Source of the DNA: Reclinomonas americana ATCC 50394
Lineage: Eukaryota
NCBI GenBank assembly: GCA_048213135.1
Contig: PS015575.1
Coordinates: forward strand, 1-38,867
Reading direction: 5' to 3'
Length of the DNA stretch: 38,867 nucleotides
Part shown: positions 1-38,867 of the stretch, piece by piece
Layout: each line of letters starts with the position of its first letter
Numbering within the stretch: position 1 is the stretch's first letter
The notes under the pieces: generated by a model
The model's database searches: none
Told to the model about the DNA's origin: nothing
Seen by the model: only the letters and a program-made list of their open reading frames with translations
Made by a program: the position numbers and the translations under genes

Positions 1-813
1 GACAACGACAACGACGACAAGAGGAGGTGGAGGAGGAGGCTCCGCGAGCGATGGCGGTGGCGGCGGCTCACAGCGAGCTGCCGATTATAAATGGTAATAA
101 CGTGCCCTGTGTACTTGGTGTATGACGAGAGGCGGTGCGTGCTGCATGCGAGATAGGAGCCCGCTGCGACGGCTGCGTTGCAAGTGCCAACGCATATTCG
201 AACACATGCACATTTATGGGCAAACCAAGGAACAACTGACGCCGCGTGCCGGGTACTTGCACGCCGCCCACATCCACGCCCCATGCACCGCAGAAGGCAC
301 GCGGAGGGTGTACTCGCAAGGTGTCCGATGATGGACGAAACCGAAAATGAGTGAGTCATTTCTCCATGTGCATGGCCACCTCCCACCAGCACGAATGCTG
401 CTTCGCTGGTATTATCTCCTCCAGAAGGGAGGAGGGGGCAAGGCGATGCACGCAACGTGCAGTGCTGTTCGTGGCAAAACAAATCCGAACACACACCAAT
501 CCTCGCCCAACCAGGGAGGCGCTTTTCAGGAAGGCGGTGGTGACACGCCATGAACGCTACAGCACACGACACATACCCGTCGCCGACACGAGGCACGAGA
601 GCGAGCGATTAGGAAACGACAATACCACGGAAGTCGATTTCTGCATTTGGCAAAGAATCCCGTATTCAATCCAGCGCAAGATGCGGTGTGTGATCGAAGC
701 GTTTTGCAAACAGACCGAGAGCAGAGGCAGTCGTCGTGACCACGAGGGAAAGCAGCACACAGCAGCAAACACATTTTTGACACACATCAACTGACGACAC
801 ACATTCAACGACA

Positions 814-1306
814 ATGGCTTCACGTATCACATTGGTGAGTGAATGTGTGAGCGAGTGCTGCAGTGCTTTCTGTGAGGCTGAATAAGAAGTGTCGTTCTCT
901 CACACACTACACAACAGCCCGTCTTCTCCGCCGCTGTCTCATGCACCGCACTGTTCTTCCAAGTCGGAGTCCTCTACCCATGGGTGAGCGCGTGAGAAGA
1001 CAACACAATCCTCCTCGCTGATGACGCACTCGCACTCACTCTCTCAGACACACACGCACGCAGCACGAGGAGCTGAGCGAGGACTTTGAGCGACTGGAGA
1101 AGACACTGGTGGCGCGCAATCAGCACCTGGAAGAACGCCTCCTCTCCATTAGCCGTGTGGCGTTTTCTGGCAACTCCTCCTCTCCTTCCTCACACACCTC
1201 CACGGTCACCTCTGCGGCCGCTGCTGCTGGCGTGCACCATCATCACCTCAGCGCTGCTGCAGCTGCCAACTCAGCAAATGCCGCCACAGCTGCGCATGCC
1301 AAGTGA
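814..1306 (+). CDS. Small conserved membrane protein with FQVGVLYPWHEELSEDF motif (uncharacterised family known from fungi)
   Basis: Exons 814-834, 918-983 and 1064-1306 with GT-AG introns give MASRITLPVFSAAVSCTALFFQVGVLYPWHEELSEDFERLEKTL...AHAK*. The motif is recalled from small fungal proteins of the type FQVFVLYPWHxxLDxDF. Confidence 0.7.
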
Positions 1307-1522
1307 CCAGCAGCAATGTGAGAGAAGAGAGAGAAAGTGTACAGCAGCAAAAAGTCAAAGCGCGTTCAGGTTGTGAGCTTGTGTATGTGTGTGTGGTGTG
1401 TGTTTTTGAACAAGTGAAGCAAACGTGCTTGGTGCGACAATGTGCGTGGCGGGCAGAGGGTGATGTGTGCTCGAGCGCGCGCGCGTGCGCATACATATGC
1501 ATAGCACTGTCAATTCACAGAG

Positions 1523-2420
1523 ATGGACGCCGAGGAAGAGCAGCTGCCTGTGGCCGTGCAGTCGCTGGTGCGTCTACTACATGCGCGCGACACAGTGAGT
1601 GCTGCGACTGGTGCTCACCCCCCACAGCACAGCGCAGACGGGCGGCATTGTTATGGTTCCGTGGTCGGTTGTGCCGCACGTGTTGCTTCTCCGCGCTCAA
1701 CTCGTGGACGGTGTGTGTGCGTGTCTCTGTGTTGTGTGTGCTTTGTGTGGTTTATCACACACGCGCGCGCGCAGAGCCCAACGCGCGGTACTGTGCGAGA
1801 CGGGAGTTGCATTGTGCGCGACACGCAATGCGCGCATTGGAGAGCGAGGGTGATGAGCAAGGCGAGGAGTCTCTCGCGCGTTTTGTCATGCGATGCTTCC
1901 TGGTGGCCGACGCCGAGGTGCTGCTGTGGCGCTGCTGTCAGCACTGTGATGACATGATGGCGGCGGCGGCTGATGTGCTGCTGGACGATGAACCGCTGCT
2001 GACGGCGGAGAATGTGGAACTCGTTGTGCAGTTTGTCAGGCATCATCTCGATGAGCCGGTGGTGGTGCTGGAGAAGCCGCTGCGAGGGCCGTTCGAGGAG
2101 CTGGTGGCGCCGTGGGATGTGCAGTTCCTGAATCGTCCGCACGCCGATGTGATGCTGCTGGTGGTGGTGCGCTGATTATGAAGGCGCGGCGAGACAGCTG
2201 TGCGTCTTCTAAACTCGGCTGTGCCGCGCAGGTGGCGAATCGTCTGCAGGTCCCCACGCTGTTGGACTACGGTTCGGCCAAGATAGCGTCGTTGATGCGA
2301 GGTGTGGATTATTTACTATACGTGTGGGAGTGGTGTCATTCCTCCTCGCCTCACACGCGCTGTGCAGGCCAGACACCGGACCAGATACGTGCCATGTTCA
2401 ACATATGCGCCGATCCGTAA
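1523..2420 (+). CDS. Divergent Skp1-family protein (about 5 exons)
   Basis: The spliced product contains QFVRHH..LEKPL..LVAPWDVQFLN..ANRLQVPTLLDYGSAKIASLMRGQTPDQIRAMFNI, matching Skp1 POZ and dimerisation-domain motifs. It stops shortly after IRAMFNI. Confidence 0.85.
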
Positions 2421-2885
2421 TGGAGGGGGTAGGAGGAAGGGAGGGGAGAGAATGGAGGCGAAGTGGTGGTTCACTTGGTTGCACTTTTGACACCGGCGCG
2501 CACGTGTTTTCCCCCGTCGCTGTAAGAGAGCAAGAGGTGTGGCATGGTCAGTATCACTGCCTGTAATCGTGTAATTATCTGCCAACCACCTATATCGCTT
2601 TCGTGCCAGCTTCTTCGGCACCGTAAAAACGAGTGTGTGCGCTGTTTCCGAATATCACATTTGACCGCGACATCTTCCTCAACAGCGTCTGAGATCACTA
2701 TCACCGCTATGAGTGAAGCACCAGACCGCTGGCAGCGACAGCACGATTGGCACGACTCTGATTCATCGCGATCGGAAGAAGCGAAATCATCCGATCTCAC
2801 GGTGATATGATCTTCCTGCGTTTCGTACGTGTTGCTCGTGTTGCTTTTTTGTGCTTCTCGGTGGAGAACTGAAAGTCCCTTTCGA

Positions 2886-5050
2886 ATGACACTCTCTGTT
2901 ACTAGTCTCCTCGCTGCTGCGGCTCTTGTCGTCTGCTTGCTTGCGTGCTCTGTCCATGCTGGCGGATCTGCACATGGTTTGTTCGCTATCGCTTCGTGTG
3001 TACTCGTCGGCATTGTTGCTCACCGCAGCCCGTCACAGGTCGACCAGACCCACATCATGACTCGAACATTCCAGTTGGAGGCGGCCGCTGCTCTGCGGAC
3101 TCTGACTGCAACTACAACAATGGAAGTTGCGCGCGCCCCACATCACGCAGTGTGCACTGACTTGTCTCGTACTGATCGCCCACACTCCCCGTGCAGCTTG
3201 TGTCCGTGGCCACTGTGCATGCGGCAACGGAATGATTGTCGGTCAGTGGTGCCAGGTGAGTGTACCCATCGTGCGCTTGGTGTAGTTCTCCTGCCTAACG
3301 AATGTCGATCGATGGATGGCAAACACAGTGCCGACCGACTCAGACCGACGGCGTGTGCAAAGAAATGCCAAAGATGTACCTCGTCCACAACGTGTGTGTC
3401 AGTGCTGAACTGTGTGTGACGGTGACGGAGAATGAGCGACGCGGATTCCTGTCTGGAGGACAGCTGGTTTCCGACTGGAATGAGGAAGCGTTGCGTGTCA
3501 CTGATGAGAGCTTCAATTGATTTTTCATATATTTTTTCTCACGAGTCGCTGCGTACAGCATGCTCTGCGTCAAATCGTCGACCATGGGCCCGCCAGACGC
3601 TGCTCGTATGCTTGGCATGTTGCACTTGGCCATGCACGACGCCGCTCAGAACGTGCCGGGTGGACAAGTTGAGTCTCGCGCACGCGTGCGCTGCTGTCGT
3701 TCTCATGCTAGAAGCACTCACTCTTCCCTCCTCAGTACAAGAAATACAAGTACTCGCTGTCGTCTCGCGTGCCTCACGACGCCTCTCGCGAAGCTGCTTG
3801 TGCAAAGGCGGCGCGCGACTTGCTGTACCACGCATTCCCCGATCGCCAGTCGTTCCTCGATGATCGCCTCACCAAGCACCTCAGCGCATTGCGCCAGTCG
3901 GGAGCCAGCAAGGTACAATCGATGTGTGATGCTGTTTCTTCTTTCCCAGAAAACTCACCCCACACAACAGTCGGCTGGAGTGTCTATCGGCGCACAGATT
4001 GCCGCCACAGTCATTGCCGATCGCACAAATGACGGTGCATCGCTCCAGCCGCTGCCGTACGTCGTGCATCCGGAGGTGGGCTTCTACAAGCTCACGCCGC
4101 CGGGATTCCTGCAGCCGGCGGCGCAGCAGTACGCTCACGTGCTGCCGTTCACCATGACGGCGACGGACATGTTCCGGTTGACGCCGGACTCGCCGTTCTA
4201 CTCGGACGAGCTGAAGAAGCAAGCACCCTTCAATCCGACTGAATTCGTCAAGAGTGCCGCGTACACCAGCGCGTGGCAGGAAGTCAGTGCTTACGGTGGC
4301 CAAAGCAGCTCCGTGCGCACCGCCGACCAGGGGAACAGTGCGCTCTTTTGGCGCGTGGATCCGACTCCCGATCATGGCGTCATCACGCCTCCGGGTTTGC
4401 ACAATGTGCAAGCGCAGCAGTTTGTGGTGGCCCACAACTGCGACCTGCAGGTACGGACAACTCTTTGCAGTTTTTTACCGCGCGAGACTTGTTTTATCTC
4501 AGACACCCCTTGCTCATGTGCGCGCGCACAGAAAGCGGCTCGTATCTTTGCCCTGTTGAATATGGGGCTGCTCGATGGGGCCGTCATGGCGTGGGACATG
4601 AAGGTTTGTAACATGCAGCTTGTCCTTTGTTCCTAAAAGTGTCTGAGCGCAGCGCCGTGTGCGTAGATCTACTTCAACTTTTGGCGCCCGGTGACTGGCA
4701 TTCAACTGGCCAACACGGACAGCAACTCGGACACCTCGCCTGACTCCTCGTGGCAGTCGTACATTGTGACACCGAACCACGAGTCGACGCCCTCCGGTCA
4801 CTCGACGTTTGCCGGCGTGGGCGCCACCGTTCTCGGCCGTTTCTTCGATGACGCGACGCCCTTCACGCAGGAGGCTGACGAATTCCCCGGCATGTGGCGT
4901 CGGTGGGGCTCACTGAACGAGGCCGCGGAGGAGGATGGCCAATCGCGCATCTTGGGCGGTGTGCACTGGCAGTTCGACAACCAGATCGGTCTGACGTCGG
5001 GCCGTCTGCTGGCCAACTACGTCTGCGACAATTACCTGACACCCAACTGA
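2886..5050 (+). CDS. Vanadium-dependent haloperoxidase-like protein, copy 1 (signal peptide + Cys-rich/EGF-like region + PAP2/VHPO domain)
   Basis: Nine exons and a hydrophobic N-terminus. Contains WNEEAM..PPDAARMLGMLHLAMHDA and the vanadate-site motifs K-IYFNFW-RP, HESTPSGH and SRILGGVH. Confidence 0.9.
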
Positions 5051-6115
5051 GCAGCATGCAGCGCCCCCTGTTTCTCTCTGTGTTTTTCCATTGAACGAAA
5101 AGTACCTTCCATGTCTTGAGGATTTGCTGTATGCGCTCGGGTCGGTCTCCTCGGCGTGTGCTCGAAAGTTCTCTGCACAGCGCATGCATGCACACACACA
5201 CACACGCGCGCGCGCGCTCCAAGAAGAGGCCGCACACACCTTTCGGATATCGCGTGTTGTACCCTCGCACCGATGTCGGCACTTTCGTGTTCGCCACATG
5301 CAGTGCGTAGCGGTACAGCGAACGTGCTTCACTCAACAGCGATGCAGGCTGCCACTCGGCTTGCCATTGCACGACGAATAGGCAGAATGTCCGTCCGTCC
5401 CTTGTCTCTTCTCACGCGCCACCATGTGCAGAGGAGAATGCACGCGACGCCGTTGCACTGCTCACACATCGCGAGGCAGATGATGGAGTCGTTGACGACG
5501 ATGCAGAGCGTAATGTGCGTTGCGCTCGTTGTTCCGATCCCTCTCCCACTCTCTTCTTGACACACACTCGTGACCACACAGAGACTTTTACCGTGTGCGT
5601 GCGACTCAGCGCATGCGTCGTCGACTGCCGTGACGTGTGTCTCTTCTTGGCTGTCTGCGGCGCGCGCCGTCATGTTGGTGATGGGTGTTGTGTGGTGGAC
5701 GCGTGACTGTGCGCATGCGCAGCGGCAGTTGCGCAGCGCTGCGTGGTGTCATCTGTCTTCTGTTGTTGTGTTGATTCGAGCCCGCACACAGTATGTGTTT
5801 TGCCGGGATTCTATGCTGTGTTTGTGCTGGTGATGTGATGGCGAAGGACGGCAAGGCTTCTCCATTCGTCGCTTGCCGCAGTGGCGAGTTTGGAGAGCAG
5901 ATCCGATGATCGCTGTCCCGCCCGCGTACGCCCAGAACTCGCACTGCCTTTGTGTGCCGAGATGCGTGGCCTCTCCCACGAAGAGCGTTCTGGAAAGGCA
6001 ACAGGCCATTACAGAAGGTTTTTCCTGTACGGTGATTTTTTCGCGCGCATTTCTTCCTCGTAACGGCTTTCAGTCCTCTTTTTTTCCTCGGTGCGAGAGA
6101 TAGTGCAAGTGTGTA

Positions 6116-7583
6116 ATGCGATTAACACAGTTGCTGGTTGCAGTGACACTGTTGTTGACGGTTTTGCTCGTCACCTTCACGTTGACGAATGCTGGTGAGT
6201 CGCCTCGTGCTGCTGTGGTGTTTTGTTGTCTGTCACGTTTTCGCGCGCGCGCGCGACTGTGGCACGTGCAATCTCGTTCTCGTGCTCACCCCTGTATAAT
6301 TCTCTTGTGCTTCTGCTGTGATCTCTCAGACGCGGATGTGGAGACGGATGGTGAGAGACACGCGCAAAGTTGATAGCTTGGTCTCGTTTTGTTCACTTCT
6401 GCGCGGGAAATCATGATCAATGATTCGCCTATGCACACGCATGCACGTGCACACAATGGTGCCTCCGCTATACTCTTCTCTGACTCTCTGGCGCATAGCA
6501 GTGACCGAGGCAGCAGAGGACTTTGGTGAGCTGGAGGATGATGATTTGTTTACTGAAGTCGACGATGGAAGGTTGCCGGTGAGACTGAACTCTACTTCTC
6601 GTCTGTTTGTTTATCAATGTGATCTCTCACGTGCGATTTCCAGCGTGGTCCGCCCGGCGATGACGGCAAGCCAGGCAGAGACAGCAAGGTTTGGAGACAC
6701 ACGCGCACATGCACACATCGTAGTGACCGTCACTCATTGATAACTGTGTCGCAGGCTGGTCCTCGTGGCTCCGCCGGTTCCCCAGGAAAGCCAGGCAAAC
6801 ATGGCAAGGTGCAGTCGCTCAACTCCGTGCACGGTGCAACTCGATTGATGCCGCTGTTGCTGACACGCACTCTCCACGCACAGCGCGGCAAATCTGGCGC
6901 GCGTGGCAAACCAGGCAAGGTGTGGTGGTGGTGGTAGTGTTGTTTACGCACGGCTGAGGTAGGTGGCATGTTGACTTGATTGCATCGTGTCGTAGAGTGG
7001 TCGCAGACCGCCTGGAAAAAACGGCAAAGATGGATCGGTTTGTGTTGCCTGGCGCTTGTCCTCCTCGGCTCGCTTGCCCCCACTCACTCATGCATCTTGC
7101 GCGTGCAGCACGGAGCTCCTGGTCCGCACGGACCATCAGGTGACGACCGGAAGGTGAGGACGGCGATCTTGTGTGTCTGCCTGCTTTCCTGATGTTGCTC
7201 GTTCTCTCACGTTGCACTTTTCTCAGCCCGGCAGGAATGGCAACGACGGCAAGGCTGGACGGGTTTGTCCTTCCTCGTGTACATGCCATGTTGATGATCG
7301 ACTACTTGTACTCACTGTGCGCACATGTAGCCGAGACCTGCCGGTCTTCGTGGCCCTTCCGGCCACCGCGGCAAGCGCGGCAAGGTGAGTGTGTCAGTAG
7401 CATGGCATGCTACGCTTTGTGGTGTTCATGCATGCTCCTCAGCGTGGACATCCCAGCTGCAGTCGCGATAGCAAGGATGGTGAAAATGGATTGTTATGTG
7501 TTGGTGTGCCTGACGACTCTTGTGCTGACCGTTGACTTTCTTTCCAGTCGGGCAAGGACGGCACAGACGACGCTCCCGGCAAG
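6116..7583 (+). CDS. Secreted collagen-like (Gly-X-Y) micro-exon gene, partly degenerate and 3'-truncated or fused to VHPO copy 2
   Basis: Signal exon 6116-6194, then acidic exons 6330-6350 and 6499-6578. GXY exons follow at 6644-6688, 6755-6808, 6884-6919, 6996-7037, 7109-7153, 7227-7262, 7331-7384, 7443-~7493 and 7548-7583 (e.g. AGPRGSAGSPGKPGKHGK). Several Gly positions are substituted. Confidence 0.8.
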
Positions 7584-7719
7584 GTACACCTTCCCCTGCC
7601 TGTTATCTGCGCATATTGCGACACAGTAGCACTCGTTCACAACAGTTGATCTAGTCGTGTAGCGCACATCCTCGCATCTGCACGTTTTTTTGTTTTCTAA
7701 CGGTCTTTACTCTGCGCAG

Positions 7720-9793
7720 ACTCACACTACTTCGATCCCAGCATCCCCAAAGGCGGTGGCGCATGCAGCACCAAGGCCAACTGTAACAACAATGGCTGTT
7801 GCGTTCATGTCGTCGTCGCGCGTCGTGTGGATGATTCTGTCTTACCGGTTGTCAAACTCTGTGCACAGCATGCGTGGCCGGCAAGTGTGTGTGCGGCAAG
7901 GGCATGATCGCTGGCCTCTGGTGCCAGGTGCCAATCTCTCTCTCGGCGATGCAAGTGACTGTGCTGGAGACTCACCGCTCCTGTATTCATGTGATGCAGT
8001 GCCGTCCGACGCAGACCGACGGCGTGTGCCGCTTGCGGGAAAAAATGTACCTCGTGCACGATGTGTGCGTGGCCGCCGATGTGTGTGTGGCCACCACGCA
8101 AGCGGAGCGCGCCAGCACGCTCACGGGCGCACAGCTGGTCTCGCAGTGGAACGATGCAGCGTTGCGCCACTTGTTGTCTTTCTTGTTTCCGCGCGCTTTT
8201 CTGTTGTTTTGACGCGGGCATGCAGCATGAAATCGATCAAGGCGAACCAGATGCCGCCGCCCGACGCGGCGCGTATGTTGGCCATTATGCACCTAGCCAT
8301 GCACGATGCCATCCAGAACGTCCCTGGCGGTCGGGTGCGTTTCTCTTCGGTCACCAACGGTCGCATTGGCGATCGTCGGTGTTTATCTTCAGTCGCTCAC
8401 CACACCCTCTCTCTCCCCAACCACGCAGTACAAGAAGTACAAGTACGTAGCCACGCAGTGCAACAAGTACGTAACCACGAAGTACAAGAAGCGCAAGCAC
8501 GTGACCGGCAGCACTCCGGCTGCCAACACATCCCGTGAGGCTGCCGCCGCTCAGGCCGCCCATGACGCTCTCTGCTTCTTCTTCGCCGCCCGCAAGCCGG
8601 TGTTGGATGCTCTGCTGGCACAGCACCTGGCGACGATCGCCGACGGCGCATCCAAGGTTTGCGACGCTCTCTTAATCTTCCCCTCCCCTCACCTCACTCG
8701 CGCCGCGCAGACGCAGGGCATCGCGCTCGGATCCACCATTGCCGCCATGATTCTGGCCGATCGTGCCACCGATGGCGTGTCGAACCCAGCGCCGCCATAC
8801 GTTGTGAATCCCGCCGTCGGCTACTACAAGCTGACGCCGCCCAGCTTTGGCCAGCCGGTGGCGCAACAGTACCCGTTTGTGCGACCGTTCGCCATGCTCA
8901 CGCAGGGCATGTTCCGCATCACACCGTCGTCTCCGTTGTACTCGGACTACATCAAGTCCACAACGCCGTTCAACCCGACCACCTTTGTCACGACAGCGGC
9001 CTACACCACCGCCTTCCAGGAGGCAAAGGACTATGGAAGTGCGAACAGCACCAAGCGCACCGCTGATCAGGCGCAGACTGCTCTCTTTTGGCGCGTCGAT
9101 CCAGTCGGCACCGCCCAAGTCATCACACCGCCGGGCCTGCACAACACTCAGACACAGCAGTTTGTGCTGGCTCACAACCGCGACCTGCAAGACGCGGCAC
9201 GCATCTTTGCGCTGCTGAACATGTCGCTGGCCGACGCGGCCATCATGTGCTGGGACATGAAGGTTTGTTGCTGCCCTCTTGCATCCCGATCGCAGGCACA
9301 GACTGCTCGCAAATGCCTTACACAATCGTGTGTCTTCGTGCAGCTGAACCTGAACTTCTGGCGCCCGGTGACTGGCATCAGCAATGCTGACATTGACAAC
9401 AACCCGTCGACCGCCAAGGACGCTTCATGGAGCTCGTACATTATCACGCCGCCGCACCAGTCCACGCCGTCGGGACACTCGAGTTTTGCTGGCGCTGGTG
9501 CCACCGTCTTGGCAGCGTTCTTCGACGAGGAGACTCCGTTGCGTCGCGATCGTGGTCGAGTATCTGAGAGAGGTTGTCGCTCACAAGTATACTACTTCCA
9601 TAGGTGGACGCAAGAGGCCGACGAGTTTGTCGGCATGTGGCGCCGCTGGGGATCGCTGTGGGAGGCAGCCGCCGAGAACGGCCAGTCGCGCATCTATGGC
9701 GGTGTGCACTGGCAGTTCGACAACCAGATCGGTCTTACGTCGGGCCGTCTGCTGGCCAACTACGTCTGCGATAATTATCTGACACCCAACTGA
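7720..9793 (+). CDS. Vanadium-dependent haloperoxidase-like protein, copy 2 (no signal-peptide exon of its own)
   Basis: Near-identical to copy 3 from about 7671 onward. Motifs K-LNLNFW-RP, HQSTPSGH and SRIYGGVH are present and the frame stays open after splicing. Confidence 0.85.
8421..8504 (+). repeat. Degenerate triplication of a splice acceptor/exon start in VHPO copy 2
   Basis: Units 8421-8450, 8451-8474 and 8475-8504 each start CCACG(C/A)AG, adding 54 nt relative to copy 3. Confidence 0.85.
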
Positions 9794-9906
9794 GCATGCA
9801 GCAGCATGCAACCTGTTTCTCTTTGTTTTTCCATTGAACGAAACAGACCTTCTTGTATCGAGGACAATCTCATTCTCATTTTGGTTTGAGTTGGAGAGAA
9901 GAAGAG

Positions 9907-12125
9907 ATGATCCACCACCGGTTTTCCGCGTGTGCATTCGTTGCCGTGCTGGCCTTTCTGCTGTTGGCCGCCTGCACTGTTGGTGCGCTTGCCCTCACTC
10001 TCTCGCGCTCTCTCTCCTTCCCACACACGCACGTGTGCGAATCCCACCTCGCATCTGCACGTTTTTTTGTAACGGTCTTTCCTCTGCTCAGACGCACGCT
10101 ACCTCGATCCCAGCATCCCCAATGGCGGTGGTGCCTGCAGCACCAACGCCGACTGCAACTATAACAACGGCTGTTGCGTTCTTGTTGTCGTCTGCGTGCA
10201 CGCTCACCATATGGATGATTCTGTCTTACCGGTTGACAAACTCTGTGCACAGCATGCGTGGCCGGCAAGTGTGTGTGCGGCAATGACATGATCGCCGGCC
10301 TCTGGTGCCAGGTGCCACTCTCTCTCGGCGATGCAAGTCACTGTGCTGGCGACTCACCGCTCCTGTATTCATGTGATGCAGTGCCGTCCGACGCAGACCG
10401 ACGGCGTGTGCCGCATGCTGCCCAAGATGTACCTCGTGCACAATGTGTGCGTGGCCGCCGACGTGTGTGTGGCCACCACGCAAGCGGAGCGCGCCAGCAC
10501 GCTCACGGGCGCACAGCTGGTCTCGCAGTGGAATGATGCAGCGTTGCGCCACTTGTTGTCTTTCTTGTTTCCGCGCGCTTTTTCTGTTGTTTTGACGCGG
10601 GCATGCAGCATGAAATCGATCAAGGCGAACCAGATGCCGCCGCCCGACGCGGCGCGTATGTTGGCCATTATGCACCTAGCCATGTACGATGCCATCCAGA
10701 ACGTCCCTGGCGGTCGGGTGCGTTTCTCTTCGGTCACCAACGGTCGCTGTCGCGATCGTCGGTGTTTATCTTCAATCGCTCACCACACCCTCTCTCTCTC
10801 CAACCACGCAGTACAAGAAGTACAAGTACGTGGCCGGCAGCACTCCGGCTGCCAACACATCCCGTGAGGCTGCCGCCGCTCAGGCCGCCCATGACGCTCT
10901 CTGCTTCTTCTTCGCCGCCCGCAAGCCGGTGTTGGATGCTCTGCTGGCACAGCACCTGGCGACAGTCGCCGATGGCGCGCCCAAGGTTTGCGACGCTCTC
11001 TTAATCTTCCCCTCCCCTCACCTCACTCGCGCCGCGCAGACGCAGGGCATCGCACTCGGATCCGCCATTGCCGCCATGATTCTGGCCGATCGTGCCACCG
11101 ATGGCGTGTCGAACTCGGCGCCGCCATACGTGGTGAATCCCGCCGTCGGCTACTACAAGCTGACGCCGCCCAGCTTTGGCCAGCCTGTGGCGCAACAGTA
11201 CCCGTCGGTGCGACCGTTCACCATGCTCACGCAGGGCATGTTCCGCATCACACCGTCGTCGCCGTTGTACTCGGACTACGTCAAGTCCACGACGCCGTTC
11301 AACCCGACCACCTTTGTCACGACTGCGGCCTACACCACTGCCTTCCAGGAGGTCAAGGACTATGGAAGCGCGAACAGCACCAAGCGCACCGCTGATCAGG
11401 CGCAGACTGCTCTCTTTTGGCGCGTCGATCCAGTCGGCACCGCCCTTGTCATCACGCCGCCGGGCCTGCACAACACTCAGACACAGCAGTTTGTGCTGGC
11501 TCACAACCGCGACTTGCAAGATGCTGCACGCATCTTTGCGCTGCTGAACATGTCGCTGGCCGACGCGGCCATCATGTGCTGGGACATGAAGGTTTGTTGC
11601 TGCTTTCTTGCATCCCGATCGTAGGCACGGCCTGCTGGCAAATGTCTCACACGATTGGGCGTCTTCGTGCAGCTGTACTTGCAGTTCTGGCGCCCGGTGA
11701 CTGGCATCAACAATGCCGACATTGACAACAACCCGTCGACCGCCAAGGACGCTTCATGGAGCTCGTACATTATCACGCCGCCGCACCAGTCCACGCCGTC
11801 GGGACACTCGACCTTTGCAGGCACCGGTGCCACCGTCTTGGCAGCGTTCTTCGACGAGGAGACTCCGTTGCGTCGCGATCGTGGTCGAGTATCTGAGAGA
11901 GGTTGTCGCTCACAAGTATACTACTTCCATAGGTGGACGCAAGAGGCCGACGAGTTTGTCGGCATGTGGCGCCGCTGGGGATCGCTGTGGGAGGCAGCCG
12001 CCGAGAACGGCCAGTCGCGCATCTATGGTGGTGTGCACTGGCAGTTCGACAACCTTATTGGTCTGTCGTCGGGTCGCTTGCTGGGCAAGTACGTTGTCAA
12101 CAACTACCTCACCCCCAATGCGTAA
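9907..12125 (+). CDS. Vanadium-dependent haloperoxidase-like protein, copy 3
   Basis: Signal peptide MIHHRFSACAFVAVLAFLLLAACTV, Cys-rich CSTNADCNYNNGSCVAGKCVCGNDMIAGLWCQC, then K-LYLQFW-RP, HQSTPSGH and SRIYGGVH. Confidence 0.9.
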
Positions 12126-12243
12126 AATGCAACGGAGAGGAGTACAAGGCGGGGGTTAAGTGTTGCAATGAGCGAGCGACTGTGAAGAATGAAACGTCGC
12201 ATACTGTCGGTCCTCATCTCCTAGGCCTCATCTAGTGATCGTA

Positions 12244-13642
12244 ATGTGGGCGCGAGTGCGACACACTCTCACTGCTCCACAGCGCTTTGCGTCGTTCGTG
12301 GTGAACGAAAGTGCAGGTCGTTTGTGGCGACTGTTGTGGAGACCGGCGACATATCTCCGCGTCGCCCTCCACTTGTGTGTGTTGGCCGTGGTGGCGTCGG
12401 TGGTGTGCATCATCGCCCTCGCCGTGACAGTGATGATGTATCGCTCGGTGCCCGAGTCGGTGATCGACCGCGAGCTGCACTTTGACTTTCGCGAGTTGCG
12501 CGCGGGCGATCGCAGGAACTCCTTCCACACTCGCTCTCTCACACACACGAGTGCAGATCATCGCCGATCGCCTACAGCACATTCGATGGCAGTGAGCTGT
12601 GGAAGAACACGGCCTACGATGTGTACGTGGAGCTGGACATTCCACGATCGCCGGAGAATGAACGCGTTGGTGAGTGCATCATCACCTCCGACCCGGCTTC
12701 CGCTTCTTCTTCTTCACTGACTCACACCGCGTGCGCAGGCTCGATCGTCATTGTACTGTCGCTGCAGGATGAGCGAGGCGCAGTGCTGGAGCGAGCGGTG
12801 CGCACAGTCGCCCTCAAGTATCGCAACTGGTTGGTCTCCACGGTGACCACGGTGCTGTGGGCGCCCCTGACACTGCTGGGAATGACCGACGGCGACGAGT
12901 CGCACATCTCCACACTGATGGTGCGCGGATACGTGGATCGTCACGCGCTGGTCAACCGCACCACGCTGTCCACGATGATGGTGACGCTTTCGTCGTCGAG
13001 CATTCGTCTGTACGGCGCGCGACTGCGACTGGAATCGAGACTGGGGTGGCTCGGGTGCGACGTGTTGTGCACTTGTGACTGTGGGTGGTTTCTCATCGCT
13101 CTGTTTGCAGAGGACTGCTGCAACTGTCGCCTCTTGTGTTTGCCACCACGGCCGGCATCGGCACCTTCGTCGCCCTCATGTGCCCGTACATGTGTTACTT
13201 GTGCTTTGCGGCGGCCCGTGCGCTCTTGTGGCACAGCCCCGAGGTCGACAGCGACGTCGACGACAATTACAGTGGATCGCCGAGTCCGCGCAGGTCACCG
13301 CCGAGCCCACGCAGTGCCCGACTCGCCTCCGCACCGAGTCGACGCTCTCGTGTGACCATTTCGTCGACGAGTACTTCGACCACTGCCGTGGTGGCGGCCG
13401 CGGCTCGAGCGGCACAGATCGACAGCTCTGACGATGACGACCAGCAACACCACCACCACCACCAGGGTGATGTTGGGGCCGACGATGCAGACGATCTGGA
13501 CGACGACGCGTCGGCATCGGCCCTATTTCACCGAGTGACCGAAACCGAAGTCGTGCAACAGCGAACTGTCGAACGAGTGAGCTCGGTGCGGCGAAGAAAA
13601 GCAGCTGCCGTTGGTAGTGGAAGTGGCAGCAGTAAGAGATAG
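12244..13642 (+). CDS. Seipin (BSCL2 family lipid-droplet biogenesis protein)
   Basis: Four exons. An N-terminal TM segment is followed by RELHFDF, YDVYVELDIPRSPENERVG, LKYRNWLVSTVTTVLWAPLTLLG and LYGARLRLESRL, then a second TM segment and a disordered tail. Confidence 0.85.
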
Positions 13643-13720
13643 CTTGATCTTCTTTCGTAAAAACTTCACAAGATGTCCTGTGCGATCACGTTGTCTTGCG
13701 GGAAGCGACTGCAGTGGCGG

Positions 13721-16153
13721 ATGCTCTCCGATGAAGATCGGCAGGCGCTAACAGTCCACGTGTGTCCTCTACACCGCAACGTTGCGTGCTTCTCCACCCG
13801 CGCATTCCTCCGATCGTTCTTCTCACTCTACACACCCACTCCACAGACCGATGCGGCTCCGCTCCGTGTCTTCTTCGAATCACTGGGCGCAGTGGCCGAC
13901 TTTCTACTGATTCACAAGGACCGCTACGCATTCGCGCTGGTTCAGTTCAGCGACATTATCGGTTGCTACAATGCCCTTTCTCTCTCGGGAACCAACATCA
14001 ATGCCGGCTCCGTTGTCTCCAATCGGTGAGCTCTCTCTCACACACACACACCTGTGACATGTGCATACTACACACACACGCGCGCGTGTACACGTACATT
14101 CGTGGTGCTGACGGAGCAGACAACTCGCGTCCTTCCCAGCGTCAACATTCGTCAATCACAACAGCCGATTGTTCATCGCTCGGCTCCACCACCACCTGAC
14201 GTAACATCGCAGCCGCCTGCCAAGCCGCGGATGAATGGCGGTGGACACTCGCAGTATCGCCAGCACGCACCTCCGGCGTCATCGCCGCCACCATTACTGC
14301 TTCAATCGGCTCCACCGCTACCCTCTGCTGCTCCTGCGCCACCACCACCGCCGCCGCCACCGCCACTGTACAATCATGCTCTGTATATCCATCCCCAGCT
14401 TCATCACCACCCGCATCCGCACCACTTCCACAACGGGCATCATCCACATCACCACGCAATGCCGATGCAGTTTCATCCCCATCCCCCTCATCCTCATCAT
14501 CATCATCTTCCGCAGCATCACCTCGGTGGCCACTCGCCGCAACCACTTCCGCCTCCGCAGAGCAGTATCCTGTCGCTGCCGCCAGGTCTGCTGCCGTTCC
14601 CGATGCATACGGCCGGACCTCTGCTGCCGTCGGCGCCGCCCCTGGTTGCTTCAGCGCCACTGCTGCCGCTGGTTTCGTCACCGCCACCACCGCCGCCGCC
14701 GCCACCGCCACCACCGCCATCGGTGGTATCGGCGATGTGGCCGATGCCGCCGGCAGTGACCACCACGCCTCAAATGGCAGGTGTACCGCTGTCGCAGCAG
14801 CCGCCACCGCTATTGTCAGCATCGGCGGCGCATGCGCTGGCACAGCCGCCTCCTCTGGTGCAGCCGAGTGCACTGGTTCTGTCGCCGTACGGATCCGGGC
14901 CAGCTCTCGCTCTTTCCGCAGCTCCGCATGTGCCGTTCCCGTCGTATGCACCGATGCCCGAGAAAGTGCCGCTGTCGGACGAGTTGTACGACAGCGGTGT
15001 GCCGACAGTGAGTGGTGCGCTGCCGGAACCCGACGTACCCAACACGGTGGTGGTGAAGAATGTGGCAAATGTTGCGTCTCCTGCCGTGTGTGCATTCCTT
15101 GTCGCGGCTACCTTGTTGATCGCTTTTTCCGCAGATTCCACGCACCGAAGTGGTTCGTTTCTTTGCCGACTGCGGACCCATCATCTCATCGTCGCACAAG
15201 ACGGACGAGCGGCCCTTCTGCATCATTGGTTTCGGCTCACGACACGCCTACGAGGCGGCGTTCGAGAAGACCTCGTTGGAGATTCGCGGCCAGCAGATCA
15301 CGTTGCGTGGTCGTCTGCAGCTGTGCTATTCTGTGTCAAAATCTCTCACACAATACGTCTCTGTAGGGTGCTGCCGTACCGCAAATCGGAGCGGCAGCGA
15401 GCGCGTGAGGCAGAGAAGGAGCGCATCAAGGCACTGAAAGCGTCGCTGCTGTTGCGCTATCGCGACACGCAGGAGTCTGCCGCCGTCCACAAACCCGACT
15501 CGGAGGTCAGTGAGCACCGGTAGCCATGATGTCTTGTTTCTGACTACTAACTTTTCGTGATGCAGTCGAGCCACTCACGCCAGCTGGAGGTGGACTCGCT
15601 GCGCATGGCGTTGGAGATGCAGGCGGTCGAGATGGGTGGCGACTTTCAGGGTACGTGCTGCCACTAGTTTAGCATGTGAGCCCGATGCACTTTGTGGTGA
15701 CGGTGTGCGCGCACAGGTCCGGATGGCAGCCTGCTGCGGGAGATGTTGGCGCGCGTCTCGATGGACGAGGATCCAGTGAGCATTCCCGACACCGACGCCG
15801 ACGACGTCATGTTGCGCCGGCTCCGCTGCTGTCACTCTCTGTTGCGCCGGAGCCTAACCATTCTCTACTCTCTGTCTCGCAGCTGCTCAATCTGCTATGA
15901 CTTCCAGGCGGCGCAGCCGTGTCGCACGCTGCATTGCGGGCACGAATTCCACGACGGCTGCATCCAGGCGTGGCACACTCGCGAATGCGAAAACCTGTCG
16001 GCGGCGCACACCTGCCCACTGTGCCGTGCACCCTACATGCTGCCGAACACCGAAGCGTCGGCCGCCGCCACAGCAGCTGCCATGGCCGCCGCAGCAGCTG
16101 GACCGTCGCGACCTCCGTCCTCCCCTTCCTGTTGCTCCAAGTTCAGCTTCTGA
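13721..16153 (+). CDS. RRM - Pro/His-rich - RRM - RING-H2 protein (putative RNA-binding E3 ligase)
   Basis: RRM1 contains LRVFFESLGAV..YAFALVQF. RRM2 contains NTVVVKNV..VRFFADCGPI..FCIIGF. The RING-H2 reads CSICYDF..LHCGHEFHDGCIQAW..TCPLCR. Confidence 0.85.
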
Positions 16154-16328
16154 GCTGTTCGCAACGCGGCAGCGTGTGCATCAGGAGACGCAGGGGGCTG
16201 GCCAGGGAATCAATGAAGAATGAGCGTCGTGTTGTTTACGAGGAAACGTCGCCACCGATGGATGGTCCTGCGAATCAGCGAGCGGGCCCGCAGCGATCAC
16301 TCACGAAAACTTGCGATCTCCATCGCCG

Positions 16329-19321
16329 ATGGCTGACCGACTGGGGCGACTCTCCGACCTCGACGCGGCGATCGTGCGCGAGTTGGCATACTCTGATGCC
16401 GTCTCACTGGAGGACGATGAAACACGAGTGCTCAGCTTTCGCAATCTGTTGCGCTCTCACACACACTCTCTCTTTCTCTCTCCCATTCTTCACGACACTC
16501 ACTGTGGCACCAGAGGGCCGCACTTTGTGGGCACCAGTCCCACTGTCTCGCAGCGAATCAAGACGCTCTTTCTCGATCACAACTGCATACGATCGGTTTG
16601 TGCGAGTCCCTTGCTTCGTCGCTCTCACACACTCTCACACACACACTCTCTCTGTGTGTGTGCAGGTGCAACTGCCAAACGGAACAGAAGTCACCGACTT
16701 GTACCTCGATCACAATGCGCTGGAGGTGTTGGATGGCGAAAGCCTCGGATGTGCGCATCGGCTGGTGTCACTGAATGTGTCGTGCAATCGGATTCGTGAA
16801 TTGCGCCATGTCGATGGTGAGGCGTGAGACAGAGAGAGAAAGGGGGCGGAATGAGCGATCCCCACCGCTCACTCACACANNNNNNNNNNNNNNNNNNNNN
16901 NNNNNNNNNNNNNNNNNNNNNNNNNNNNNNNNNNNNNNNNNNNNNNNNNNNNNNNNNNNNNNNNNNNNNNNNNNNNNNNNNNNNNNNNNNNNNNNNNNNN
17001 NNNNNNNNNNNNNNNNNNNNNNNNNNNNNNNNNNNNNNNNNNNNNNNNNNNNNNNNNNNNNNNNNNNNNNNNNNNNNNNNNNNNNNNNNNNNNNNNNNNN
17101 NNNNNNNNNNNNNNNNNNNNNNNNNNNNNNNNNNNNNNNNNNNNNNNNNNNNNNNNNNNNNNNNNNNNNNNNNNNNNNNNNNNNNNNNNNNNNNNNNNNN
17201 NNNNNNNNNNNNNNNNNNNNNNNNNNNNNNNNNNNNNNNNNNNNNNNNNNNNNNNNNNNNNNNNNNNNNNNNNNNNNNNNNNNNNNNNNNNNNNNNNNNN
17301 NNNNNNNNNNNNNNNNNNNNNNNNNNNNNNNNNNNNNNNNNNNNNNNNNNNNNNNNNNNNNNNNNNNNNNNNNNNNNNNNNNNNNNNNNNNNNNNNNNNN
17401 NNNNNNNNNNNNNNNNNNNNNNNNNNNNCGACCTGGCCGTCTCGCTGTGTCACACGCCCGCCGGCCGCGCCGAGTTCGTCCGTCTGGCTCAGATGGCGCG
17501 TGAGCAGGAGGGACTGCCGCAGCCGCCGTCGATCTTGTTGCGTCGACCTGTGGGAGGTGTCGCACACACCGCAACTGCTGAACTCACCTCCATCGCTGCA
17601 GTCAATCATCACTCGGTCTGCTGCTTGCCGTCGGCAGCGATCCAGGATTCGAGCTCGGCGACATGACACGCAACGAGGTGCATCGCTACGTTGAGGGGCC
17701 CACGTCGCTGCTCTCCACCAAATCGCCATCATTGCCGCCCACGCTACCTGTGCCATCGTTCTCGCTCTTTGGTTGAGTTTGCTCGTGTGCATGAGGGCGT
17801 TTCCTATCTCCCGCGACTTAACTCGCAAGTGCTGCTGCTCCAGGTACACCACCAAAGACACCCGATGTGCCGTACGACATGCTGGCCACCGACGACGGTA
17901 TGAGCGCGTCGTCCACGGGCTCACGGCGACAGCACGACACCTTGCATTCATCACCACCGTCTCCTGGTGCCTCGACCGCCGACCACTCGCTCCAGCACAC
18001 TACCACCGATCCGCACTACCAGGCGGAGGCGCACGAAGACGTGGTGGTGGTTGTCACAGATCACGACCCGCCGGTTCCACAGCCGCCACGCGCCACTGCT
18101 GTGCGCAATGCAGCGACCCCACCACCACCATCATCCGCGCCCGCACCCGCATCTCGTGGACCTCGACCACTGGCCGTGACTGCCAAGCCACCGCCACCTG
18201 CGCCACGGGGAGCAGCACCATCATCACAACAACAACAGCGGTCTGAGGTGGCAAGGAAGCCGTCTGGTGGAGAGGCTGGTAAGTCGTCGGTTGTCTGTTC
18301 TGATTGCACGCACACACACTTACTCATGCAATTCTTAATAGTCGGTGGTGGTACCACGCAAACGGTGAGAGTGGATGCGCCGGCCAATGCGAGTCCGGCC
18401 GACGCGCCCAAGTCCAACGATGAACTCTTCCAGCTGTACAAGCGACTGAAGAACCTGAAGCAGGAGGCCGAACGGATGAAGCGTCGCGAAGCTGATTTGA
18501 GGCGGACGCAGGAAATGGCGGCCGCCGCGTTGCCCCGCCGCCAGGAACCGCACCCGAAATCCGGGCCACCGACTCCCCCACCCGATCTTTTCGACTCGGG
18601 CTCGTTGCGTGGACCGACCATTCATGCGCACACATTTTGTCGTTCACTCTAAACTCACAACAACTCCTCTCTCACACTCAGTGAATTGCCGCCGGCCTGG
18701 AGTCGTCCACCAACGCTACCGCCCCTGAACATTGAGATCGCCGTGCCCGAGGTGGCGCCGCGCTCCGAATCCGAATCCAAGTTCCGCACCAACGCCAAGC
18801 GATTCGTGGCACCAAGTGCCTTCTCGCAACCGTTCGCCCCAGCCCACGGCTCGCCTCCACGATCGCGGACATCGCCAGGGCGAGGCCGAAGGACTCCGAC
18901 GTCCACGCGACCCGCCAGCAAGGTGAGCGTTGTGGTGAGCGAGGATCACCGCTTTCGTGCCCATTTGTTGCTGACTCCCTTCCACAGGCACCCTCACCGC
19001 ACCAGCGATCGCAACCGTCGCCGACCACGGCAATGCAAGCGCGGCTGCGACAGCCGACGCCACCAGGTGTGTGTGTGTGTGTGTGTGCCAGGTCCAACAA
19101 CTACAACAACACGAAAGTCTCGCTAATCACCCCCCACAGGCGCACGTGACCGGCGTTCCATGTCGCCGGAAGATGTGTTACGGCCACCAGCACATCCCTA
19201 CGACGCGGCGCTGTCGTACAAGGTGGCGCTGCCGCCAGGTCCCGTGCGCAGCGACGCCGAGGCCCTGGAGCGAGCACGCTTGTTGTATTTGCATGCTCGC
19301 CGCGCCCGAGATCCGCGATGA
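16329..19321 (+). CDS. Leucine-rich-repeat protein with long Pro-rich/coiled-coil C-terminal region (interrupted by gap)
   Basis: LRR motifs IKTLFLDHNCI, VTDLYLDHNAL and LVSLNVSCNRIREL. Spliced exons continue to a stop at 19321. Continuity across the gap at 16880-17428 is assumed. Confidence 0.65.
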
Positions 19322-31940: not shown

Positions 31941-32558
31941 TTACGTCAGCGCTCCACTGCGACGATAGAAGGAGCTCTCCACCAGCTTCTGGCGGTTGAA
32001 CTTGCCCGCCTGTGGCTCCACTCCCGTGGCACGCCATCTGCGCACACAGAGAGAGAGAGATGAAGGCGGTGAGACACACACCATCATCATCAGAGAGGAT
32101 GACGGTTGACGCAACCCAATCTCCTGCGACGAGGTCTGCATGGTTCCATAGCGCTCCTGTGGCGACGCCTTCTTCTGATGCTTCAAGTACGCCGCACGAC
32201 CCTCACCCTGTGCGCGCGTGCGTGTGTGAGAGAGAGGCACGCGTGCCAGCCAATCAGGCGGAAGAACAGCCACACACAGACCTCCTTGGAGACACCCTGC
32301 GTGAGAATGTCCTTCTCGGGGCGACTGTCAATGGTGGGTCTCGCCAGCAACTCCTCATCGCGATAGGCGCGCGCCAGGTTCTCCTGGTTCTTCGCCACCA
32401 CATCCTTGGCATACATCGTCTGCCACTTCTTGATCGTCCGCTGCTCGGACTTGATCATTTGCTCAAAGGCCATAGCTGTGCAGGAGAAGTGCACGAGTGA
32501 GTGAGTGAGTGTGAGTGGAGAGCAAGCGGGTACGATGAAGACCTTCATGCGCGTCCAT
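31941..32558 (-). CDS. SPMIP1/ATP6V1FNB-like axonemal microtubule inner protein
   Basis: The spliced product contains LTQGVSKEGEGRAAYLK..PQERY..TSSQEIGW..FNRQKLVESSFYRRSG, matching the recalled family pattern GxSxxGxGRxxYL..PxEK/RY..SSxExGW..FY. Confidence 0.75.
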
Positions 32559-32800
32559 GATTGGCAGAGAAGAGAAAGAGAAACGGCTCCGTCGTCGATC
32601 GGATGGACGGTGGATTATCGAGCGGTCTCTCCTTCATCAGAAGAGTACCTCGGGCCCTCGCTTTTTGTCGTGTTTTTCATTTGGATCCCTGTTGCGGAGC
32701 GGAAGCAATCCACACCTCCCCTCTCTTTGCCTATTCTCTGTTGGTCTCTCTCCACTGTTGTGTGTGTGTGTGAGACACTCGCCGCCTCATCTTCGCCGCC

Positions 32801-38800: not shown

Positions 38801-38867
38801 CGCTCGCACAACTGCGATCGCGCTACGAGCAGGCCGAGATGCTGAACCAGTCGTACCGCGAGCAGCG
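32801..38867 (+). CDS. Very large multi-exon coiled-coil protein (rootletin/CEP/golgin-like composition), continues beyond window
   Basis: ATG at 32801 is followed by a short exon and GTAAGT, then more than 15 exons of E/Q/L/R-rich heptad sequence in consistent frame. Confidence 0.85.

Follow-up and report, generated by a model that had tools for sequence, protein, structure and literature searches.

Three predicted vanadium haloperoxidase genes of bacterial type, one of them a probable recombinant hybrid, in the flagellate Reclinomonas americana

Vanadium haloperoxidases were listed in an earlier note on the DNA analysed here as enzymes known mainly from red and brown algae, some fungi and bacteria. 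The list is incomplete: it lacks a rotifer (Rotaria) group, a Gracilaria group and two fungal groups with bacterial neighbours, for which bacteria-to-fungi transfer has been proposed, including a bacterial origin of the Curvularia-type fungal enzymes (PMC10427571). Transfer from bacteria and tandem clusters have also been described for the kelp haloperoxidases (PMC11765636). In the wider family, a member from the planctomycete Rhodopirellula halogenates and prefers bromide five-fold (PMC13519999). Here we describe a cluster of three predicted vanadium haloperoxidase genes at positions 2886-12125 of contig PS015575.1 of Reclinomonas americana ATCC 50394, a freshwater jakobid that sits in a lorica (PMC11145212). 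Throughout, "the window" denotes the whole stretch of DNA analysed, which is 38,867 nucleotides (nt) long. We found no literature on haloperoxidases in heterotrophic protists or on a collagen/EGF architecture, with subscription papers and the sequence tables of PMC10427571 and PMC13519999 outside the scope of this search, and none of the matches listed joined Reclinomonas and haloperoxidase.

The nearest relatives are of bacterial type. As the query we used a 498-amino-acid (aa) stop-free stretch of copy 2 (8297-9790) with its introns read through, which matched 909 of 8000 scored candidates. The 120 top-ranking matches were PF22778/PF01569 proteins at 28-42% identity, and the small number with an organism in their name were bacterial. 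A set of 184 relatives was compiled from 104 of these 120 proteins (350-640 aa kept) and all 80 loci supplied by the best of 487 matches confirmed in genomes. Its members came mostly from Planctomycetota, Thermoanaerobaculia, Cyanobacteria and Verrucomicrobiota, and the top identity of the spliced R. americana proteins to them was 40-43%, in line with the bacterial-type resemblance proposed at the outset.

The closest of these relatives (e.g., P0010, P0003, L053 and L065) combine PF22778, the second helix bundle of the VCPO family, with PF01569 and are 38-43% identical to the three copies over ~415-430 residues. They are uncharacterised proteins of Planctomycetota, Thermoanaerobaculia/Acidobacteriota, Cyanobacteria and Verrucomicrobiota that share the compact two-bundle domain and all site residues, and many have N-terminal export-like leaders. 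In contrast to the three copies, they have no introns, no ten-cysteine module (131 full-length relatives checked), Tyr or Phe before Ser-Gly-His, and C-terminal sorting or Ig/RTX/dockerin domains instead. Shorter proteins gave 38 matches, of which those covering at least 28% of the query were 28-46% identical and included no close protist fragment. Among longer proteins, where searches are weak evidence, 11 matches had Ig-like, dockerin, FG-GAP or doubled-enzyme architectures and none had an EGF or collagen family. Two metagenome scans yielded no relative: none of 92 pattern matches in one and none of 595 in the other was confirmed. Among the bacterial-type matches themselves, one protein (P0121) has, in a single chain, two complete haloperoxidase domains that differ in subtype, and others (P0122-P0129) are fused to Ig-like, dockerin or FG-GAP repeats, such that surface display recurs.

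Profile and structure comparisons pointed to the same family. When a family profile was compared with solved structures, the best match was ZgVIPO1 of Zobellia galactanivorans (4CIT/4USZ; expectation value, E, of 2e-71), followed by Curvularia inaequalis chloroperoxidase (4e-49); values were far weaker for algal bromoperoxidases (1e-7 to 5e-3) and acid phosphatases (2e-4 or worse). An AlphaFold model, made without the first two helices and with four read-through introns, had a predicted template-modelling (TM) score of 0.83. Its best structural match in Foldseek was again ZgVIPO1 (4USZ, E 1e-14, TM 0.63), and it also matched the Curvularia enzyme (1VNC, E 9e-12), with acid phosphatases at E 0.01 or worse. 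The model and its matches place two helix bundles, the N-terminal one included, in a single chain. Pfam scans of the intron-interrupted pieces matched VCPO_N at E 0.007, below the cut-off, and PAP2 at E 1e-9 to 2e-12, with E 1e-9 on the last exon of copy 1. In an Atlas lookup, the ten best matches with a family all belonged to the VCPO family or its clan, and the five clusters shown were 87-100% bacterial. Judged by profile and predicted structure, the three proteins have the monomeric, bacterial/fungal-type vanadium haloperoxidase fold.

Two other family assignments were rejected. A plain PAP2 protein or class A acid phosphatase does not fit proteins of ~530 aa with no membrane segment past the leader, phosphatases rank far lower, and the motif is all that is shared with them; the grouping with ordinary PAP2 acid phosphatases that the earlier note had set against its own assignment was not seen, as both the profile and Foldseek place haloperoxidases far above them. 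An algal-type vanadium bromoperoxidase, whose subunits form dimers or dodecamers, does not fit the profile values given above or the fold comparison (TM ~0.2).

Each of the described systems nonetheless differs from this cluster. ZgVIPO1 is bacterial, lacks a Cys module, shares ~20% identity in the structural alignment, and has Phe at the position of Curvularia F397 (PMC9144378), where the three copies have His. The Curvularia chloroperoxidase (1VNC/1IDQ) is eukaryotic and has the same site residues by direct alignment, but it is more distant (single-sequence E 4e-10, 16-18% structural identity), and its F397 and Y400 are replaced here by His and Thr. To our knowledge, its start has no signal-plus-Cys module of this type. 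Kelp and red-algal clusters of bromo- and iodoperoxidases are likewise eukaryotic tandem expansions for which a bacterial origin has been proposed (PMC11765636), and Corallina shares His at the F397 position (PMC9144378), although the algal enzymes belong to another subfamily and oligomer type, differ in fold and occur in photosynthetic marine hosts.

Splice models were based on open frames, agreement among paralogues and alignment to intron-less relatives. They give three open frames on the forward strand, bearing out the proposal of spliced, intron-rich paralogues, with the exception that copy 2 is a hybrid of the other two without a signal exon of its own. Copy 1 (2886-5050) has nine exons (2886-2976, 3039-3125, 3197-3255, 3329-3489, 3559-3667, 3736-3912, 3971-4450, 4532-4603 and 4667-5050) joined across GT-AG introns in an open frame of 539 aa, comprising a signal exon, a ten-Cys module and the haloperoxidase domain. 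Copy 3 (9907-12125) has the same order in 532 aa and nine exons (9907-9982, 10092-10172, 10253-10311, 10382-10542, 10609-10717, 10812-10985, 11040-11591, 11673-11866 and 11933-12125). The enzyme part of copy 2 (7720-9793) is open over 522 aa and eight exons (7720-7797, 7869-7927, 8000-8160, 8226-8334, 8429-8656, 8711-9262, 9344-9537 and 9604-9793) and has no start of its own. The leaders of copies 1 and 3 are hydrophobic (best 12-residue Kyte-Doolittle mean of 3.1), which agrees with the signal peptides assigned to them earlier, and no further membrane-length segment was found in either copy on this scale (best other 19-residue mean of 1.4-1.5).

Our splice-site set held 33 introns (8 from copy 1, 8 from copy 3, 7 from the core of copy 2 and 10 from a collagen-like part ahead of it), leaving aside two disputed introns at the collagen/enzyme junction. 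All 33 were GT-AG and 54-148 nt long, with an unusual donor spectrum in which 8 of 33 began with GTTGCG (5 of 33 with GTTGCGT) and 9 of 33 with GTTTG. Copies 1 and 3 have their first six intron positions and phases in common. They are 64% identical in amino acids, with a synonymous distance (dS) of ~1.1 and a ratio of nonsynonymous to synonymous distance (dN/dS) of 0.27, while copies 2 and 3 are 93.5% identical with dN/dS of 0.26. GC content at third codon positions (GC3) was 0.72-0.80 in the haloperoxidase genes versus 0.74-0.92 in three neighbouring exons. Read together, the shared introns, host-like GC3 and dN/dS of ~0.27 indicate that the genes are long resident in the host genome, in line with the domestication proposed earlier, and copies 1 and 3 are under purifying selection. 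Bacterial contamination was rejected given the spliceosomal introns and the eukaryotic neighbours Skp1 and seipin.

The vanadate-binding set claimed for each paralogue (K-x6-RP, PSGH and R-x5-H) was recovered in all three spliced models, as were the N-terminal WN and PP.AAR.LA..HLAM.DA helices, and all seven vanadate-site residues are present. Alignment to Curvularia 1IDQ places D292, W350, K353, R360, S402, G403, H404, R490 and H496, and the equivalents of the site residues and of D292 and W350 occur in every copy. In copy 3 the site residues are K404, R411, S447, G448, H449, R498 and H504, the equivalents of D292 and W350 are D350 and W401, and H442 and T445 take the positions of F397 and Y400. 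None of the 184 relatives departs from the site Lys, either Arg or the last His, and the Ser, Gly and His of the central motif are present in 175, 173 and 180 of 184. At the F397 position, the His of the three copies recurs in 25 of 184 relatives. Two residues before Ser-Gly-His, all three copies have Thr in place of Tyr, a position that is Tyr in 179 relatives, Phe in 4, Cys in 1 and Thr in none. In the loop, for which the family pattern is P-x-[FH]-P-x-Y, the Pro position after F397 is Pro in 170 of 184 relatives and Gln or Glu here.

With modest confidence, we favour the reading that these genes encode secreted, vanadate-binding, H2O2-using enzymes that would release hypohalous acid near the cell surface, and that the enzymes are probably of old bacterial origin. 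By the chemistry of the family, vanadate on the last His would take up H2O2, oxidise halide and release hypohalous acid. Bromide or iodide would be likelier than chloride, judging from the His at the place of F397, which predicts the halide only weakly. The Cys module may hold the enzyme on the cell surface or in a secreted matrix, where the enzyme could carry out oxidative or halogen chemistry locally, directed at bacteria or at the matrix itself.

Several points weigh against this reading. Bromide and vanadate may be scarce for a freshwater host. The pocket of the three copies appears atypical in the alignment, because Thr replaces Tyr and Gln or Glu replaces Pro in its loop. His at the F397 place implies no fixed halide choice, as it is found both in the Corallina bromoperoxidase and in a chloroperoxidase from a bacterium, and a review treats the determinants of halide choice as unsettled (PMC9144378). 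The vanadate site also serves phosphatase chemistry (PMC9144378; title of PDB entry 3BB0), and a homologue with the same fold, NapH3, runs a non-halogenating reaction according to the title of entry 8CXL. It is thus conceivable, although we judge it rather unlikely, that the haloperoxidase fold was kept while the proteins act mainly as secreted phosphatases in phosphate scavenging or catalyse some other non-halogenating reaction. Such an account draws on the shared residues of the two sites (PMC9144378), on the dephosphorylation by the Curvularia apo-enzyme announced in the 3BB0 title, on a pocket-loop change seen in none of the 184 relatives, and on NapH3 as a case in which fold and site do not guarantee halogenation. 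It has to contend with the length, the helix bundle at the N terminus and the counterparts of D292 and W350, all of which are haloperoxidase traits, with the low rank of acid phosphatases by both profile and fold, and with a sole NCBIfam match that covered 19 residues and scored 21 bits, where the cut-off is 250.

If the favoured haloperoxidase reading holds and the enzymes are active, biological halogenation would reach bacteria-eating protists, in a host that is probably freshwater. The enzyme family, its transfers to eukaryotes and its tandem expansion are already known. What is new here is the type of host, a rare Cys module, an active-site loop with unusual residues, and a hybrid copy of recent origin that apparently captured a collagen leader. 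The three copies offer natural variants of an almost invariant active-site loop, which would be useful for the question of halide choice (PMC9144378).

To place the three copies among their relatives, we built a FastTree phylogeny (LG+gamma) of 187 sequences and 415 columns, covering the three copies and the 184 relatives and no fungal, algal or rotifer sequences. The three copies formed a clade with support of 1.0 on a long stem of 0.92 substitutions per site, without a supported sister group. This clade attached between a group of 165 sequences (0.59) and a group of 19 sequences (0.47), the latter including 14 with a Curvularia-like motif. Such attachment support counts against the bacterial origin named above. 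Bacterial transfer of the haloperoxidase genes is nevertheless likely, a view based on the identity of the closest neighbours; the tree points to no particular donor. The horizontal acquisition suggested earlier therefore survives in part: all close relatives with a name or taxon label are bacterial, but the tree places the clade only loosely. A transfer, if there was one, would be old, given the shared introns, the dS of ~1.1 between copies 1 and 3, and the host-like GC3.

The Cys-rich module that precedes the enzyme domain is present in all three copies, as the earlier note had described, whereas its label as EGF-like found no profile or pattern match. It contains ten Cys with spacings of 5, 6, 4, 1, 9, 1, 8, 12 and 5 in copies 1 and 3; in copy 2, which has a codon deletion within the module, the spacing starts 5, 5. 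By cysteine spacing only, the first six (5, 6, 4, 1, 9) resemble an EGF or EB module. Pfam scans of the intron-interrupted pieces gave no EGF-family match, two PROSITE-type EGF patterns failed on the module, and PDB sequence searches with it returned chance matches only. An Atlas lookup returned EB, Dumpy and EGF clusters at 0.79-0.88, which are leads only, and the predicted fold over this part had a predicted local distance difference test score below 50.

Searching a 96-aa piece of the module against 1.84 billion representatives produced a single match (P0132, E 1e-5), a 185-aa fragment from a Logan contig. As in copies 1 and 3, a signal is followed in this fragment by a module with the same ten Cys and then by the WN helix. 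The second part of its module is 46-54% identical, two introns are apparently at the same positions and one is missing, and its predicted fold had a predicted TM score of 0.33. It ends without a view of the enzyme domain and comes from another species or represents a further paralogue. With this one match and none among the 131 full-length relatives, the architecture was not found to be widespread or already described, which is the other outcome that had been set against the proposal. The combination of signal, Cys module and haloperoxidase appears to be rare in the databases searched, which sample spliced protist genes poorly.

Although the cluster itself was confirmed, its first description overlooked a piece of 12 exons ahead of copy 2 (6116-7583, forward strand) that encodes a signal and a collagen-like repeat. 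Its leader (6116-6578) consists of a signal exon at 6116-6194 ending in phase 1 and exons at 6330-6350 and 6499-6578, which make up an acidic segment with 15 Asp or Glu in 34 aa. Nine short, Lys/Arg-rich Gly-X-Y exons follow at 6644-7583, with lengths of 45, 54, 36, 42, 45, 36, 54, ~50 and 36 nt, seven of which are multiples of 9 nt. Pfam Collagen matched a two-exon piece at 24.7 bits (E 2e-5), against a cut-off of 27.2. With the register set by eye, Gly is kept at 37 of 45 triplet positions, substituted at 6 and deleted at 2, and the longest unbroken run is 11 triplets. Each of the 6 Gly losses is one base change from a Gly codon, both deletions are whole codons, and the donor after the eighth Gly-X-Y exon is damaged. 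The 6 substitutions over 90 sites amount to 0.067, which matches the neutral distance of 0.065 per copy 2 branch. Repeats in 5051-7720 comprise the collagen exons and microsatellites, and no mobile-element ends were seen there. Between copy 1 and this piece, the stretch at 5300-5830 (forward strand) holds intron-like sequence with strong acceptors at 5431, 5581, 5722 and 5791 and a short acidic reading frame with no Pfam match, possibly a small gene or remnant that arrived with the collagen piece.

Copy 2 itself is, from its sequence, a hybrid of copies 3 and 1. Its DNA homology to copy 3 starts at ~7670, inside copy 3 intron 1, at 91% identity, and its body is copy-3-like, whereas its last 30 codons are copy-1-like (30 of 30 aa identical). 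The 3' flank (9794-9864) also resembles that of copy 1, with the block 4865-5122 matching 9608-9864 at 84% identity, and we read it as left behind when copy 1 and copy 3 recombined. The synonymous distance of copy 2 to its parents is 0.10-0.13 in the body and 0.15 in the tail, as expected from one unequal crossing-over. Only copy 2 has a 54-nt local tandem duplication of an acceptor and exon start (8429-8482), which adds 18 aa in frame or offers two additional acceptors, at 8458 and 8482, that are also in frame. We rejected the possibility that copies 2 and 3 are one allele assembled twice, given their 91% DNA identity and different tails.

In a home-made codon model of 469 codons, neutral evolution of copy 2 was rejected (omega 0.28; P 2e-5 with equal branches and 5e-4 with unconstrained branches), a test that is indicative given the distant outgroup and likely gene conversion. 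With three of the seven introns identical in copies 2 and 3, any decay of copy 2 could be hidden by gene conversion, a further point against the favoured reading. These observations suggest a history in which an old duplication gave rise to copies 1 and 3, and unequal crossing-over between them later produced copy 2. At about the same time, a piece of a collagen gene would have replaced the promoter and signal exon of copy 2. Copy 2 would then keep its enzyme under selection behind a borrowed leader, either as a full fusion or with the signal exon alone, while the collagen repeat drifts. On this history, copy 2 would be a new gene whose origin can be dated, made by unequal crossing-over and capture of another gene's leader.

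How the leader and the enzyme are joined depends on the junction zone (7443-7719). Phase 0 at the end of the last collagen exon (donor 7584) does not suit the enzyme exon at 7720, which needs phase 1, and the in-register path therefore loses the frame and soon runs into a stop. A donor at 7480 with a 68-nt intron would restore the frame and make copy 2 one protein of 711 aa, consisting of a signal, acidic segment, interrupted collagen repeat, Cys module and haloperoxidase. This fusion is plausible, though short of probable. Its frame is open across GT-AG sites, branch-point-like words lie ~23 nt before both acceptors, and the damage to the in-register donor of that exon is the very change needed to correct the phase. 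The collagen deletions of whole codons and the selection on the enzyme part fit it as well. Yet donor 7480 scores 3.2, as low as only 5 of 33 left-out true donors and no better than 133 of 630 non-donor GTs, and with 847 stop-free splice paths in the zone, finding one is easy. The mismatch of the in-register path also remains, and the loss of Gly speaks against a working triple helix.

We next considered copy 2 as an orphan, with an unrelated collagen remnant set ahead of a once-functional gene by a recent rearrangement or by an assembly misjoin near 7660. The phase mismatch and the abrupt start of homology near 7670 would follow naturally, and the codon deletion in the Cys module and the 54-nt duplication are consistent with decay. 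Amino acid changes could be placed on copy 2 in 9 cases and on copy 3 in 4 (14 unplaceable, 6 synonymous each), but this difference in rate is not significant (P 0.40). Moreover, the 1.57-kilobase (kb) enzyme part has no stop or frameshift, the Gly loss would match the age of copy 2 by coincidence, and positions 1-16879 contain no N gap. An orphaned copy 2 accordingly remains a serious contender without being the expected outcome. A third account, which we consider unlikely, has only the borrowed signal exon, or that exon together with the second (each phase 1), spliced to 7720, giving a secreted protein of 549 or 556 aa. Either join keeps the frame, and selection on the enzyme alongside drift in the collagen repeat would be accounted for; the intron required is 1.4-1.5 kb, however, compared with 54-148 nt for the 33 modelled introns, and the intervening splice sites look intact. 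Separately, changes specific to copy 2 at 7721-7741 have produced a branch-point-like word 21 nt ahead of 7741, a candidate second acceptor that would fit the frame of a weak donor at 7493.

The most far-reaching reading makes copy 2 a real secreted fusion of collagen-like stalk, EGF-like module and haloperoxidase, in a cluster that would build or protect a matrix, with hypohalous acid cross-linking or sterilising a coat such as the lorica. We regard this as quite improbable. In animals, the haem enzyme peroxidasin cross-links collagen IV. Were the matrix reading true, the cluster would be a vanadium parallel to peroxidasin and collagen IV that arose via exon shuffling in an early-branching flagellate.

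The neighbours of the cluster are eukaryotic. Pfam scans identified genes for Skp1, seipin and a nucleotidyl transferase, and no Rfam match was found in 2400-12400. A spliced gene at 31941-32480 on the reverse strand encodes an SPMIP1-family microtubule inner protein (E 4e-11), a marker of motile flagella, which supports the flagellate host proposed from the sequence alone. Read by eye, a gene at 13673-16153 on the forward strand resembles an RRM, a Pro/His-rich low-complexity segment, a second RRM and a RING finger. Finally, a very long coiled-coil-like gene with gaps occupies 32800-38867 on the forward strand and runs past the end of the window.

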